64,000 nucleotides of DNA from the NCBI GenBank assembly GCA_039589315.1, contig JBDHHQ010000004.1:1-64000 (forward strand), in the 5' to 3' direction. A program made the position numbers. This DNA is from Gemmatimonadota bacterium (GTDB lineage: Bacteria > Gemmatimonadota > Gemmatimonadetes > Longimicrobiales > Gaopeijiaceae). Below, in pieces: positions 27,001-36,000 of this stretch (the first letter of the stretch is position 1; every line of letters begins with the position of its first letter).

Positions 27001-30000
27001 GACCCGAATTCTTCTTCCCGAGCCTCGCGGTCGAAGGTGACTCGCAGGCCCTCCTCGGTCGCGGAAACTGAAGGGGACCCCGACGACGAGACGAGCCTCC
27101 AATCGGATTGGAGCCCCTCCGCCGCCCACTCCACGGGCTCGGTGACGCCGGCGGACAGATCGGAGCCTGTGAGTGTTGCGGCGCCGAGATGATCCTCGAG
27201 ATGCAGAGGCCCGTCGGCCGTGAGCATCTGGGATCCCGACTGCGAGTCGCAGCCCACGACGATTGCACTGAGCAGGCTGGCTGTGACGATTCCGGAACGG
27301 TGGCGGACGAACATGGCCGGACCCCGGCTTGTCCCGCTCCTTGAGGCTCGATTCCAGCATTGCCCAATGCCCCGGAGCAGATCTCCCTCGTGGGAGAGCA
27401 GCGAGTCCGGAGTGGGACAGTTTTGAATCGAGACTACGCCTCGATGATAGGGGCCTCGCTTTGCGAGCGCCACGATCATGGCGAGCCTCGACCGATTCCG
27501 CTCTCCGCCGCGAGCTCGCGGCTCACTGTGGGTCGCCAGTGGTCAGGTGGGCGGTCGGAGGGGTCGGTCGCGGAGCGGGCTACGCCGGTCGCACGGGCCG
27601 GTCGCGGGGCAGGCTGCGGCGGTCGCACGCGCCGGTCGTGAGGCAGATGCGGCGGCGATGCAGCGGCACCGTGTGGACGCCGTCGCCTCCCTTGCATCGC
27701 TCTCTGTGACTAATTACTCTTTATGCATATATGCATATCGTGCAATTGGACAGAGTAGAGGTCCGACATGGCCGAGATTCCGGAAGGCATGAGCACCCTC
27801 GAGTACCACGTTCTGCTGTCCATGGCCTCAGGGCCCCGGTACGGCTACGCGATCAAGGACGCCGTAGCGGCCGAGTCCGCCGGAACGCTCCAGCCACGAG
27901 CCGGCACCCTCTACCGTGTGCTGGCCCGCCTCATGACCCACGGTTGGGTGGCTGAAGTCCAAACCGGCCAGGACGACCCGCCGCACCCCGGGCTGACCCG
28001 CAAGTACTACGGCCTGACGGCCACCGGCCGCGCCGCCCTCGCCGTGGAAGCCCGGCGGTTGCGCGAAGCCGCGGCGTTGGCCGAGGAACGTCTCGGGCTG
28101 GTGGAGAAGACGGGTTGAACGCGTTGTTGGATCTGCTGATCCGCCTGTTTCCGAGGGCGTTCCGCCGGCAGTTCGGTGCGGACCTGCACGAGCAAGTCCG
28201 CGTCGACCTGGGGCGCGCCGAGCGTCGTGGGCGCTGGCCGGCCCTCGCGTTCACGGTCTGGACGGGTCTGGACCTGATCCGGTCGGCGGTGGCCGAGCGC
28301 TTGCGTCCGACGTGGGTCGGCGCGCATGCCACGAGCGAGAGAGTGACGACGGGAGGGGAGAGGACGATGACGATGGGTGGATGGACCCGAGACCTGCTTT
28401 ACGCCACGCGCGCCCTGAGGCGGGCGCCGGGGTTCACGGCGGCCGTGGTGGTCACGCTCGGGCTGGCCGTGGGAGCCAACGCGGGGATCTTCAGCGTGAT
28501 TTCGGCCGTTCTGCTGGATCCGTTGCCCTTCGAGGAGCCGGACCGGCTGGTGTACATCGCCGCGTCGGCCCCAGGCTCGGACTTCCCCGACGAGTTCCCA
28601 GTGTCAATGGAGTTCTACGTCCAGTACGCCGAACAGGCGACGCTTCTCGACGGCCTGGCCACGTTCAACTCGTTCACGGCCACGCTGCGCGTGGGCGATC
28701 GGATCGAGCGCGTTCGCATGTCGATGCCCACGCACACGCTGTTCGAAACGCTGGGGGCGGAGCCCATCCTGGGCAGACTCCCCGAGCCCGAAGACGGGGA
28801 AGACGTCGCGGTCATCAGCTATGCGCTGTGGACGACGTGGTTCGGATCGGATCCCGACGTAATCGGGAAGGCCTACGAGGCAATCAATCTCCCGCGGACG
28901 ATCATCGGGGTCATGCGTCCTGACTTCCGGTTTCCCAACGACGGCGTGCTCCTCTGGATTCCGAGCGAGGTCCCGACCGAGATCGTACCCGGACGATTCG
29001 GGCGTCGGCTCGTGGGACGGCTGGCACCGGGCGCCGAGCCTGAGGATCTGGCCACGCAACTGCAGACGCTGGCCAGCCGGCTCCCGGAGCGATTCGGTGG
29101 ATCGGCCGCCTACGCGCGCCTGATCGAGCAGCACCGCCCGGTGGTTCGGCCCCTGCGCGAGGAGCTTCTGGGCCACGTGTCGGGGCCGCTCTGGGTGCTC
29201 ATGGGCTCGGTCGCCCTGGTCCTTCTGATCGCATGCGCCAACGTCGCCAACTTGTTCCTCGTGCGAACGGAGAGCCGACGACGCGACCTGGCCGTCCGGC
29301 GCGCCATGGGAGCCGGTCGTGGCCTGCTGATCCGTACCCAGATGGCCGAGGCCGTGCTGCTTGCTGCCTGGGGCGGCGCCCTGGGCGTCGTGCTTGCCTG
29401 GGTCGGGACTCCACTGCTCCTTCGCTTCGCGCCGACGATCCCCCGGGGCGACTCCGTTGCCGTCGAGGCACCCACGCTCCTGTTCGCGCTGGGCTTGTCG
29501 GCGCTGGCGGCGATCGTGTGCGGCCTCGCGCCCGCGGTGCGTGCTTCGGCGCCGAGCCTCGACCGACTCCGTGATGCCGGACGCGGTCATACGCGCCGCC
29601 GTAGCTGGGGGAGGGACGGCTTGGTCGTGGCTCAGACCGCCTTGGCGCTCGTGCTCCTGGTCGGCTCCGGACTCCTGGTGCGCAGCTTCGTGAAGCTGAG
29701 ATCGGTGGACCCCGGCTATGACACGGAGGACATCTTCACCTTCCAGATCGCTCCCGAATCCGAAGGCCTGTCCGACGGTCCCGAGTACGCCCGCTTCCAC
29801 ACGGACTTCATGGAGCGGGTGGCCTCTCTTCCCGGTGTCGAGTCAGTGGGCGTCGTCGGTGAGCTGCCGCTGGACGAGGGTGTCCGCGGCGGACGGTTCG
29901 TCACCGAGGACCGCCAGGCCGACGAGGACGAAGGCGTCTTGCTCAACTACACCTGGAGCGGTGGGGACTACTTCTCCACCATGGGAATCGAGGTGCGTCT

Positions 30001-33000: not shown

Positions 33001-36000
33001 GCGGCGATCCGCTCGAAGGCGGCGCTCCCATCCTGGATCTCGATGTAGGCGGGTCCCGAGATCACGTCCCTGAGCTGACCATCCTCGACGTTGCTCCCCC
33101 AAACCACCATCACCCGATCCGGGTCCGACCATGGCGGCGCCTTCAACAGCGTTCCCCGAACGAAGCTGAAGACCGTCGCGTTGGCCGCGACGGCGCAGGC
33201 CAGCACGATCACCGCAGTCGCGGCGTAGCCCCGACTTCTCGAGAGCGACCTGGCCACGAAACGTACATCGAGCATCCATCCCCGGCCCATCCCCATCGTC
33301 ATCCTCCGGATTCGATCCATCCACACCCCCACTGCCCCGGCCGCCAGATCCGCGGTCACCACCGCGCTCGCCCACGGGGTTCTTCCCGCCCTCTCCCACC
33401 GGAAGCTCGCAACCGCGAGCATCTCGGCGCCGTACCGCTGTCGGTGCGACGGCGGGTACAGCCAGAGAATCGACTTCAGAACGGACTTCACGCCGACTCC
33501 TCGAGCAGGTCGAGGGCGCGTGCCGCTTCGACCAGGCTCGCCTGACGGCGCGCCTCGGCCCGCAGTGCGGCCATGCCCCTGTGGGTCACCCGGTACAGCT
33601 TCCTGGGCGCGCCCAGGCCCTCCGGCTTCAGGCTCTCCTCCAGCGGCTCCACCAGACCGTCGTCGACGAGGCTAGCGATCGTGCGGTACAGGGACCCGGC
33701 GTTGAGCCGGATCCCACCTTCCGAGCGGTCTTCCAGGCGCTCCAGGAGCTCGAGACCGTAGGTAGGCTCCTCCGCCAGCAGCAGGAGGATCATGTGGTGA
33801 ACGGGCTTGAGCGGCGAGCTGTGATCGACGGAGGCCTCGGTCATGGTTCTTCTCCTTAATATGCATTTCGCATATGCAGTATGCATAAAAGAGGAGATCG
33901 AGGCAAGCCCTGGAGGCCCGGCGACAGGCCCGGGCGTCGAGACCGATCCTCGATCAGGCGCCGGTCACCACGTAGTAGAGCGGTACCGCGATCGCCAGAA
34001 GCCAGGACAGGACCGCGATCCATCTCAGCGGCCGCTGTCGGGCTCGACCGAACACACCGACGACCGACGGCTGTACCGCTATGCCTTCGAGCAGAACCAC
34101 GAGGGCCATGAGGCAGAGCGCTCCGAAGACCACGTGTTGACTCTGACCAAGGCCCCACGCCGGTTCCGGACGCGTCTAGGCCAGCCCCTTGGCCCGCGTG
34201 GGCCAGAAGTAGGCGCCCAACGTCACGAGGAGGGTGACCAGGAACACGGGCAAGAGGCCGAACTGAAGCAACAGCAGGGGCATGGTGGCCGTCACCAGCC
34301 CGCCGCCCAGCAACGGCGACGCCACCATCGCCCGGGCGGCGAAGGCCTGCGCCGCGGGGGTGCGGTTCTCCGGGTCGACCACGCGCAACAACATGAGCCC
34401 GACGGCGGTCACCGCGGTCTGGGTCCCGTACATGACGATCCCTTGCTCGAACCAGTACGTCTTCATCATGCGCCGAGCCAAGAACGCGAACGTCGCCCAC
34501 GTCCAGACGATGCCGACCCCCATCAACAGGGCGAACGGCACCGCGTTCTGGAGGAACAGGTCCAGGCGCAGCGAGGCGATGGCCGCCACGACCAGGAGGT
34601 CCAGGGACAGCCCCATGATGCGGTGGACGCTGCCGCGGTCGAAGTAGGCCGCGGCTCCACTCCGGTCGGCGACGAGCTGCACGAGCATCCCGCCGATCAT
34701 CGCCAGGGGAAACAGCGGGAATCCGGACAGGGCGGGATGAAGCGATCGGACCGCGAGCTGCAGTACCCAACCGATGAGCACCGCTACGCTCAGGATCGCG
34801 ACATGGAAGGTGAAGGGCTCCATCACGCTGGTTCGCACGGTTCCCCGGGCGATCGAAACGCGCTCGGAACGGGGGATCAGACCGGAGCGGTCGCTCTGCG
34901 AGGCTACGCGCGAGGCCCCCGCCTCCGGTGACAGTTGGGTCGCATGGCCCCTACGGACGCCCTGGCCGATCAAGGCCATCCCCGTGATCACGCCGACGAC
35001 GATCCCGACCGTCGCGGACATCTGTCCCAGCGCACCGCCGGCCTCGAAGCCCAGGTCGTCGAAGACGCCGGTCATGGCCGCCGCCGTCCCATGCCCCCCG
35101 GCGAACCCCACCTCGATGATGCACGCGAACAGGATCGACGAGCCGAACAGCGGTGCCAACACCAGACCGGTGAGCGCGATGCCGACCAGATACTGACCCA
35201 GGGAGGTCACGACCCCGAAGCGGAAGATCGGGCCGCCGAGCAGCACCAGGTGCCGGACGCTCGGCAAGCTCGTGCCCACGAACAGCGCAGCGAACACGTA
35301 GTTGATCAGCACCCCGGGGACCGTCGACCACAGCCCGACGACGTCAGTCGGAACCCGGTCGACACCGTAGGGTCCGGCGGCCAGCCCGATGAACCCGCCG
35401 ATGAGCGAAACGGGGAGCATCAGCCGGCGAAGCAGCCGGATGCGGAGCTGTAGCAGCAACCCCAACAGGAGCAGCAACCCCAGGCCACCCAGGCCTACGA
35501 CGAACGCCATGCGCTCCTCAAGCCCAGGATCAACCGATCGAACGGCTGTCTGCCACTCACGCGCCCAGCGAGGCCTCCACCTTCGCCTCGACGACCGACA
35601 GCACCTTGCCCGCCGCCTCCACGATGCCCCCGAGCCTGTCCCTGATCTCCGCGCAGAACGCCTCGTCCGAGATGTTGGGCAGGTTGATGCGCACGTTATA
35701 GGCCGCGGCCTTGAGTCCGGCGTGGGCCATGAGCGCGCCGCTCCCCGCGTCGCTGATCATCTCGGGCGTGGCGAGCTCCGCCATGTCCCGACACAGGCCG
35801 AGGGCCTCGAAGCACCGCTCCACCGTGGCCATGGGAACGAGGGTGGCCTCCTTGTAGCCCTCCAGGATGGCCGCGGCGCGGGCCTCCCTCTCCGCCTCGG
35901 TGTCCTTGGGCATCCGGATCCCGACGAGCACCGAGTCGAAGGCCCGCGTGTCGTCGTCCACGGCCCGGATCAGCGCGTCCTTCACGGTCTGCGCCCGGGT

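Follow-up and report, generated by a model that had tools for sequence, protein, structure and literature searches.

Mostly private putative operators and a co-varying permease prefix in padR-ADOP gene cassettes of a Gemmatimonadota bacterium

Results

Two convergent padR-ADOP pairs

The window, a stretch of 64,000 nucleotides from contig JBDHHQ010000004.1 of a Gemmatimonadota bacterium, contains two pairs of a padR gene and an ADOP permease gene between positions 27692 and 33906. The genome-wide survey's note had introduced them as a divergent example; the genes are convergent, with padR and ADOP on the forward strand facing ADOP and padR on the reverse strand. The locus comprises the following features (TIGR03434 cut-off, 622.3 bits).

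27692..27697, + strand: padR1 -35-like hexamer TTGCAT, 17 bp from the -10 box (sequence match only)
27712..27732, + strand: padR1 candidate operator dyad 1, odd centre at 27722
27715..27720, + strand: padR1 -10-like hexamer TACTCT, inside dyad 1
27727..27747, + strand: padR1 candidate operator dyad 2, 15 bp after dyad 1
27768..28118, + strand: padR1, short PadR of 116 aa, clade A (PF03551 E 1.8e-16)
28115..28303, + strand: class-A N-terminal prefix of ADOP1, residues 2-63, three predicted helices
28115..30784, + strand: ADOP1, duplicated MacB/FtsX-type permease of 889 aa (TIGR03434, 786 bits)
30800..30842, no strand: GC-rich hairpin between the convergent 3' ends, read from the sequence
30885..33491, - strand: ADOP2, 868 aa (TIGR03434, 637 bits)
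33488..33844, - strand: padR2, 118 aa, clade A (PF03551 E 8.9e-18)
33860..33874, - strand: padR2 candidate operator, downstream dyad TATGCG-AAA-TGCATA, kept in the loci L134 and L135
33873..33887, - strand: padR2 candidate operator, upstream dyad TATGCA-TAC-TGCATA, 13 bp from the downstream dyad
33901..33906, - strand: padR2 -35-like hexamer TTGCCT, by eye

The start of ADOP1 overlaps the stop of padR1, and both permeases carry two MacB_PCD and two FtsX domain stretches. In the model of the ADOP1 prefix the helices span residues 2-10, 14-38 and 41-63 (mean pLDDT 75). This prefix had no Pfam or NCBIfam match, and its profile matched the class that hits perm_prefix_2 with a probability of 95.9%. 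The prefix of ADOP2, likewise of class A, was placed at about 33303-33491 by alignment. By eye, the family of padR1 dyad 1 has the consensus AAWTACTC-N5-GAGTAWTT, and the dyad is kept in the orthologue loci L002, L003, L136, L137, L140 and L143. A strict TAxxxT -10 filter did not call the padR2 promoter. The GC-rich hairpin, which occurs in one copy genome-wide, is a possible bidirectional terminator.

Census of the cassettes

The survey had counted 72 padR paralogues, 65 of them adjacent to an ADOP gene, with ATPase genes rarely nearby and a nearest-paralogue identity of 54% in the median and 68% at most, and our searches agree with this picture. PF03551 had 74 matches in the genome. Our own profile likewise found 74 padR loci, of which 67 have an ADOP match directly downstream on the same strand; a stricter profile cut left 72 PadRs, 67 of them directly upstream of an ADOP. 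One of the 67 downstream partners is a C-terminal ADOP fragment only, and three of the seven non-adjacent PadRs lie at contig ends. An ABC ATPase domain was found within 1.5 kb of one of the 94 near-full ADOPs and within 3 kb of four. The nearest-paralogue identity of the PadRs has a median of 0.50 and a maximum of 0.67. Downstream of the ADOP, 40 of 67 cassettes have no long ORF within 60 nt; conserved cargo genes at this 3' side were rejected, as the 16 candidates, inspected by eye, mostly appear spurious. A look for natural PadR-ADOP fusions gave 21 longer proteins, nearly all of them single-member; two have ADOP domains and are perhaps frameshift artefacts, and the set was put aside.

Leader repeats with a common architecture

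The 65 padR leaders reached a median repeat score of 16.9 bits, compared to 10.8 bits for 200 of 656 control leaders (p 3e-19) and 12.0 bits for local shuffles, which preserve the AT richness of the leaders (p 8e-13). The excess over other leaders and shuffles reported by the survey was thus reproduced, and the leader repeats are, as far as their sequence goes, real operator-like elements. The 95th percentile of the controls was exceeded by 42 of the 65 leaders, with 23 below it, and that of the shuffles by 33; a cruder repeat score gave 29 of 65.

The typical putative operator consists of two copies of a mostly odd-centred palindrome of 15-21 bp over the -10 box, which lay within the operator in 37 of 40 cases. 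Among the 49 of 163 operator families that passed the confidence cut, 41 were odd-centred, and 19 of 41 had a period of 15. A sigma70-like promoter was present in 40 of 101 padR leaders and in 35 of 656 controls. The earlier statement that there is no shared padR leader family overlooked this architecture, which is common to the leaders.

The repeats might be by-products of AT-rich promoters in a genome of 67% GC, and the padR leaders are indeed AT-rich (median of the lowest 40-nt GC 0.375 vs 0.575 in controls). Yet the excess persists against the local shuffles, the repeat words are orthogroup-specific across genera, and both parity and period are non-random. We regard this explanation, which is already disfavoured, as highly improbable.

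Conservation and specificity of the putative operators

The survey's claim that the repeats are conserved in orthologues can now be put into numbers. In 35 congener pairs the identity was 0.88 for the operator, 0.65 for the flanks and 0.64 for fourfold sites, and the operator exceeded its flank in 29 pairs. In each of 34 congener pairs the orthologue's leader was the top match among 65, whereas the nearest paralogue's leader came first in 0 of 65. For homologues outside the congener set, the cognate leader ranked first in 8 of 13 cases at an identity of at least 70% and in 12 of 41 at 60-70%. Matrices from other genera placed it first of 66 in 11 of 23 groups, among the top three in 15 and outside them in 8. 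At the window both leaders ranked first of 66: that of padR1 with 34 vs 26 (matrix from six other-genus or metagenome orthologues) and that of padR2 with 50 vs 24 (two other-genus orthologues). The putative operators follow PadR across genera and mostly differ between paralogues.

Outside the padR leaders, 22 of 28 matrices had no strong site, and the 28 matrices together gave 16 extra sites compared to 5.0 with shuffled matrices. Six of these off-locus sites were inspected: three lie in apparently coding DNA, one before a GntR-like gene and two in intergenic DNA. A broad regulon was rejected. Since the dyads lie over the -10 box and most matrices have no outside site, the data support the survey's view that the genome has not one regulon but dozens of repressors, each paired with an operator through which it regulates itself.

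The survey also held that each of these operators is private. This agrees with 31 of 42 confident operators, which had no cross-match in a test that is biased towards privacy. In its strict form the claim did not stand: the remaining 11 matched a paralogue's leader with at least 75% of their own best site, among them the pairs C40/C46, C23/C45, C47/C152 and C42/C102. Whole-leader similarity showed almost no sharing between paralogues, whereas half-site matrices did reveal it. Operator privacy is graded, and strict orthogonality was overstated.

Such cross-matches would be expected if the operators formed a few cross-reacting families and the cassettes a network instead of independent switches. 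Recurrent motifs were seen, namely GTAGAC/GCAGAC half-sites within one subgroup of clade D and N-TAGGG-like words within clade B; a weak Mantel correlation was found (rho 0.055, p 0.008), and one half-site of the padR1 operator resembles that of padR2. However, the majority without cross-match, even given the bias of that test, the nearest paralogue's leader never ranking first, and the variation of parity and spacing between operators make a network improbable. Three leads on recognition, all uncorrected for phylogeny, were noted: where Arg follows the helix-3 Tyr, +3 is G (8/11); where Pro or Ala does, it is C (11/16); and where Trp precedes the helix, the dyad is even (3/3).

A permease prefix that co-varies with PadR

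The survey's account of the cassettes was incomplete in that it missed an N-terminal prefix of the permease. This helical prefix is present in 61 of 62 PadR-linked ADOPs and in 3 of 25 unlinked ones; one PadR-linked ADOP has no scored extension, 22 ADOPs have neither, and a PadR lies directly upstream of 61 of the 64 ADOPs with a scored extension. Across 58 pairs, PadR identity correlated with that of the prefix (rho 0.58) but not with that of the permease core (-0.02). Within clades the values were 0.57, 0.48 and 0.29 for the prefix vs 0.22, 0.35 and 0.04 for the core. Of 31 cross-genus pairs, 27 retained the cognate prefix and 24 the cognate core. Four PadR clades correspond to four prefix classes, with a nearest-neighbour agreement of 202/231 vs 0.31 expected. 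The sequences indicate that the prefix co-varies with PadR while the permease body can be swapped. Because the padR gene and the prefix share DNA at their overlap, the co-variation could also stem from recombination breakpoints and need not reflect contact.

Prefixes of clade B match NF038403 (permease prefix domain 1) and those of clade D match NF038404 (domain 2), whereas the class-A prefix of the window matched neither the HAAS nor the perm_prefix models. PF22564 was touched by 1 of 24 prefixes, of class B, at an E of 0.0097, which is below the cut-off. In profile comparison class A, which has no evident GxP, matched class B with 78% and class D with 96% probability. A structure search with the prefix model gave no Foldseek match; the best Z of 4.7 was to unrelated helical bundles, and the search was uninformative.

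LmrR- and LadR-type repressors sense a small hydrophobic ligand directly. If PadR did the same here, the ADOP would be the induced efflux part and the prefix structural or a hitch-hiker. Among solved structures, short PadRs come closest to the clade-A profile, with entries labelled 'Transcriptional regulator, PadR-like family' at the head, such as 3f8b, which is LmrR. Moreover, operator, padR and prefix are contiguous, so that linkage alone can yield co-variation, and the Listeria PadRs are described as autoregulatory repressors of one or two membrane-protein gene units each (PMC6624303). Direct sensing nevertheless appears unlikely, given that 22 of 25 ADOPs without PadR lack the prefix, that clades and prefix classes agree as described above, and that the prefix is retained when the body is replaced.

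A candidate shared ATPase engine

The term ATPase-less, which the survey applied to the permeases, holds for their immediate neighbourhood; beyond it, the ATPases A and B are encoded elsewhere in the genome. In relatives, arrays of ADOPs are bordered by these two stand-alone ATPases of the MacB type: of 28 loci each, 20 with ATPase B and 18 with ATPase A have an ADOP within about 1.5 kb. In the present genome and in close kin, both ATPases belong to a permease-free operon of TolC, adaptor, ATPase A, ATPase B, sigma54 regulator and kinase. It has no permease in the genomes G001, G010, G033 and G060, although G010, a single contig, contains 29 ADOP matches in other places. In kin the operon starts with an OEP and an HlyD-type adaptor gene; the cognate adaptor gene was not found in the present assembly and, judging from the congener, probably falls in the gap between contigs C158 and C24. 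Contigs C109 and C24 were first assigned to a single ATPase gene; this was given up, as the congener has two ATPase A copies in different contexts. Each of the 35 genomes of the published sample that had a strong ADOP match encodes A or B, and ATPase A was also found in 18 genomes without one (7 candidates scored per genome); genomes of kin do not count as independent samples here. DarD, MacB and LolD-type models gave both ATPases their highest scores, which stay under the cut-offs of these models.

Both coupling-helix motifs are among the best-conserved ADOP columns, and they occur in 39 and 42 of 58 linked ADOPs and in 19 and 23 of 30 unlinked ones. Since prefixed ADOPs seldom adjoin the ATPases, it is the conservation of these motifs that speaks for their drawing on the engine. 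From gene context we infer a partnership of the ATPases and adaptor with the ADOPs, and with such a shared ATPase, adaptor and TolC module ATPase-free permeases are unlikely.

Prefixed ADOPs could instead be ATPase-free membrane receptors that do no more than signal to PadR, with the ATPases serving prefix-less ADOPs only. Next to ATPases A and B, most ADOPs begin at profile positions 59-92 and so lack a prefix, and linked ADOPs have no cognate ATPase nearby. But the coupling motifs are equally frequent in linked and unlinked ADOPs, and bodies are exchanged under a constant prefix, so that prefixed and prefix-less ADOPs are not separate lineages. Furthermore, such a receptor would have no output, as its repressor has almost no other target. 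We therefore consider this quite improbable.

Discussion

The best explanation, which we hold with moderate confidence, is a portable self-repressing module of operator, padR and prefix on a type VII ABC permease body. Two PadR dimers would very probably bind the two dyads and block RNA polymerase. The roughly 90 ADOPs are likely to dock shared ATPases and an adaptor in trans, so that each cassette would control the amount of its own permease head on offer to a single engine. The prefix would be cytoplasmic and precede TM1, where MacB has its fused ATPase. It may well bind the cognate PadR and pull it off the DNA, leading to ligand-specific induction of its own permease; PadR release could be triggered when the divergent periplasmic domains engage the ligand, or when the pump cycles. 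By analogy with MacB-family biology, envelope-active or peptide-like compounds are the most likely ligands.

A fuller reading is offered tentatively. One operon of TolC, adaptor and two ATPases might drive about 90 heads, some 65 of them self-sensing, with 30-50 orthogonal pairs per genome and a readable code. The module of operator, padR and prefix would then be swappable, sense the activity of its head and induce only the gene of that head, and the recognition code would lie in dyad parity and inner bases, both determined by the first residues of the recognition helix.

In these soil and sediment bacteria the ADOP permeases, which have no known function, make up one of the largest paralogue expansions. 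The family now becomes a set of testable parts: each cassette has its named putative operators, the prefix is a candidate partner domain, and loss of the candidate shared engine would be expected to silence every head together. The study of paralogue insulation could draw on hundreds of matched pairs of repressor and putative operator built on one fold, which would also provide raw material for orthogonal switches. On the proposed view, the cassettes form a natural library of near-independent genetic switches.

The padR-ADOP gene pairing and the paralogue expansion are the basis on which TIGR03434, TIGR03433 and the prefix models were built. The permeases of the window pass the TIGR03434 cut-off, as in the family. 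Its PadRs stay below the 101.8-bit cut-off of TIGR03433 (padR_acidobact) with 52.5 bits for padR1 and 38.8 for padR2, yet pass PF03551, and its prefix class has no model. By definition ADOPs have no fused or adjacent ABC ATPase; this describes the present genome but is not general, in view of the ATPase-B loci of relatives. The models are silent on operators, and the label 'orphan' is contradicted by ATPases A and B. The proposed logic of sharing resembles that of group II ECF transporters.

In MacAB-TolC and BceAB, both type VII ABC systems, a coupling helix lies between TM2 and TM3, and adaptor and TolC take part (PMC5985334). The same text describes BceAB as a fused double permease that both senses and detoxifies. 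The ADOPs share the permease fold and conserved coupling helices with these systems; in contrast, one ATPase and adaptor operon apparently serves tens of unlinked permeases here, and the signal would go to PadR, not to a kinase. The Listeria PadRs LftR, LltR, LstR and LadR each control one or two transcription units with membrane-protein targets, and three are autoregulatory (PMC6624303). They are four paralogues compared to about 70 here (104 matches in the genome G150), and the accessible text links them to neither an ADOP nor a shared engine.

Ravi et al. proposed a HAAS-PadR-like wHTH dyad in which a three-helix N-terminal domain signals to the neighbouring PadR (10.1101/2020.09.24.301986, PMC11237479). 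They named HAAS fusions to FtsX-like TM and MacB/PCD domains and called the dyad an alternative to two-component systems. Accordingly similar are the predicted three-helix N-terminal domain of ADOP1 and the PadR adjoining nearly all extended ADOPs. Their dyad is a prediction, presented in the accessible text of PMC11237479 without operators, paralogue-level specificity or a shared ATPase. In the main texts searched, mostly open-access, we found no account of the operators of these cassettes, including their grammar, or of in-trans ATPase sharing. The padR-ADOP pairing and the idea of HAAS-PadR signalling are already in print, and the cassettes, whose components had been catalogued, extend a known kind of system.

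Two convergent cassettes in the window

The padR-ADOP pair in the window had been called divergent in the genome-wide survey's note, but its two cassettes, each a padR repressor gene with an ADOP permease (TIGR03434, MacB/FtsX-type), face each other:

27768-30784, + strand: padR1 and ADOP1
30885-33844, - strand: padR2 and ADOP2
30800-30842: GC-rich hairpin, found once in the genome, separating the convergent 3' ends of ADOP1 and ADOP2
22315-27479, - strand: two ~860-aa proteins in tandem, divergent from padR1
34176-37428, - strand: two genes on the strand of padR2 and upstream of it

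Both permeases passed the ADOP cut-off, and both regulators matched PF03551 yet stayed under the TIGR03433 cut-off. The closest named records of padR2 belong to one Gemmatimonadota and one Longimicrobiales genome. The padR2 leader carries TATGCA-N3-TGCATA twice with a spacing of 13 bp and the padR1 leader a longer dyad twice with a spacing of 15 bp, both kept in orthologues. The nearer ~860-aa protein, which starts ~235 nt from the padR1 operator, matches the PF00884 sulfatases, and the farther one resembles it by eye; the two may be co-regulated with padR1. Upstream of padR2, the 444-aa membrane protein had no Pfam or NCBIfam match at E 0.001; the 623-aa protein looks like a formiminotransferase-cyclodeaminase.

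An old and numerous PadR family

The genome (6.67 Mb, 288 contigs, 67.5% GC, 95% complete, 5% contamination) holds 94 near-full ADOPs and 74 PadR matches, 67 of the latter with an ADOP immediately downstream, in agreement with the arrangement reported before. The PadR paralogues are old, their nearest-paralogue identity reaching 0.67 at most (median 0.50). Since, in addition, 40 of 44 congener PadRs have a reciprocal best hit here, contamination does not explain their number. In G150, a genome of another genus, 104 PadR matches were found in 5.3 Mb, with an ADOP downstream in 86 of the 102 extracted. The usual order is reversed at C47:11634-14777 (+) of the genome under study, where an ADOP comes first, a padR follows it directly and no further ADOP comes after.

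Operators and probable self-repression

Each PadR very probably represses its own cassette. Scored by the fit of two palindromes per leader, the repeats are genuine: the 65 leaders had a median of 16.9 bits, the control leaders (200 of 656) one of 10.8, and local shuffles one of 12.0. As the survey's note had itself cautioned, only part of the leaders score high: a third to a half are not individually significant, because 42/65 exceed the 95th percentile of the controls and 33/65 that of the shuffles. The operators have a common grammar. Confident calls came from 49 of 163 protein clusters, drawn from this genome, eight related genomes and a small number of public contigs; the dyads were odd-centred in 41 of the 49 and repeated at 15 bp in 19 of the 41. 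A sigma70-like promoter was present in 40/101 leaders versus 35/656 controls, and its -10 lay within the operator span in 37 of the 40.

Conservation in orthologues, previously asserted but not quantified, is borne out: when operators are defined on this genome only, 35 congener pairs show an identity of 0.88 in operators versus 0.65 in the flanking sequence and 0.64 at fourfold sites, and operators exceeded flanks in 29 pairs. The orthologue's leader ranked first of 65 in all 34 of the congener pairs above 85% identity. For 169 homologues from other genomes the cognate leader ranked first in 8/13 at ≥70% identity (one of these 13 being a 90% record of unknown genus), 12/41 at 60-70%, 5/76 at 50-60% and 3/39 below that. 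Independent matrices, which exclude this genome, its congener and the 90% record, ranked the cognate leader (66 candidates) first for 11/23 groups, had it among the top three for 15/23, and failed in 8.

The claim that every operator is private was upheld in part. The nearest paralogue's leader came first in 0/65 cases, but at the half-site level another leader comes to at least 75% of an operator's own best site for 11 of the 42 confident ones, in a test that favours privacy because every matrix includes its own leader. Privacy is graded, and the Mantel correlation was small (rho 0.055, p 0.008). A rival reading takes the cassettes for a cross-talking network. Sister PadRs do have words in common, namely GTAGAC/GCAGAC in one clade-D subgroup, TGA(T/G)AT in C40 and C46, and TCGATA in C16 and C73. 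For 22 of 28 matrices no strong site emerged outside padR leaders, and most of the extra off-locus sites inspected were unconvincing as targets. With so few outside sites, the main output of each PadR would therefore be its own operon.

Two off-locus sites are described here separately. The C10+31613 operator recurs almost perfectly at L379:2576-2600 (contig C195), in the space between two genes that converge and where no padR is close; it may be what is left of a cassette since lost. The C43 operator has an AT-rich match at L380:2877-2901 (contig C29), ahead of a gene whose product is probably TPR-like, and this site is a candidate off-locus target.

The ADOP prefix and its PadR

Among 87 ADOPs with >300 nt of upstream sequence, 61 had both the N-terminal helical extension (prefix) and a PadR, 22 neither, three the extension only, and one a PadR with an unscored extension. 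Four prefix classes fall on four PadR clades, with nearest-neighbour agreement in 202 of 231 classified cases (45 unclassified). Two classes are NF038403 and NF038404; no existing model matches the window's class, which has three helices in the predicted fold and a 96% match to the NF038404-type class.

PadR identity followed that of the prefix (rho 0.58) and not that of the remaining part of that polypeptide (-0.02; 58 pairs), and this co-variation is also present within clades. A serious alternative is that it comes from physical linkage. Of 31 pairs across genera, 27 kept a cognate prefix and 24 a cognate body. In one body-swap case (PadR 84% identical) the prefix ranked first and the body 61st of 62, and the operator words look retained by eye. 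The portable unit comprises operator, padR and prefix. We lean towards a prefix that relays the state of the permease to the cognate PadR; the rival view is that PadR senses a ligand directly.

A probable shared engine in trans

The ADOPs had been described as ATPase-less, which holds locally (an ABC ATPase within 1.5 kb in 1/94 and within 3 kb in 4/94), but stand-alone ATPases exist: the genome has six MacB/LolD-type ATPase domains, of which two, A and B, are without a permease. One common engine of ATPases, adaptor and TolC-type outer-membrane channel (OEP) would probably serve the permeases in trans. The rival is that prefixed ADOPs are ATPase-free receptors. Two coupling-helix motifs rank with the best-conserved ADOP columns, against 27-28% identity in the periplasmic domains, and the motifs are equally common in PadR-linked and unlinked ADOPs.

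Across 119 published genomes sampled from the class, including this one (only seven ADOP candidates scored per genome; kin not independent), 35 had a strong ADOP match and all 35 had ATPase A or B; B occurred in 29/35 versus 2/84 others. An ADOP lay within ~1.5 kb of B in 20/28 top loci and of A in 18/28, frequently in the order adaptor-A-ADOPs-B-regulator-kinase. Four related genomes (G001, G010, G033, G060) have a permease-free adaptor-A-B operon. Its first gene is the OEP in the first three; the one ORF tested in G060 gave no match, and no regulator-kinase pair was seen behind B in G033. None of the 29 ADOP matches on the single contig of G010 is closer than 480 kb to this operon. In the present assembly the operon is split, with the OEP at the end of C158 and the remainder where C24 begins; the adaptor gene, not found in this assembly, probably lies in the gap between them.

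A second copy of ATPase A follows another operon:

L289:7798-10595, end of contig C109: ECF sigma, probable anti-sigma, Toastrack (DUF4097), then second ATPase A

Two other genomes, G150 and G010, likewise carry ATPase A twice, the second copy having a similar gene upstream. Such an arrangement would connect the engine with a sigma factor for envelope stress. Elsewhere, at L361:5740-11285 (contig C1), genes for an OEP, an adaptor and two half-size permeases share a contig that lacks an ATPase; these are likely another client of a stand-alone ATPase.

Comparison with known systems

Taken together, self-repression, an engine in trans and relay by the prefix form a combined reading that we favour with moderate confidence. 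In the literature searched, no description of the operator-level result or of the permease-free engine operon was found. The MacB coupling helix engages the ATPase (PMC5985334). For Psychroflexus, ten ADOPs, clustered and abundant, have been reported among genes of further transporters, some of them ATP-binding (PMC3914696). Ravi et al. (10.1101/2020.09.24.301986 / PMC11237479) had earlier proposed a HAAS-PadR dyad of this kind for FtsX/MacB-PCD proteins.
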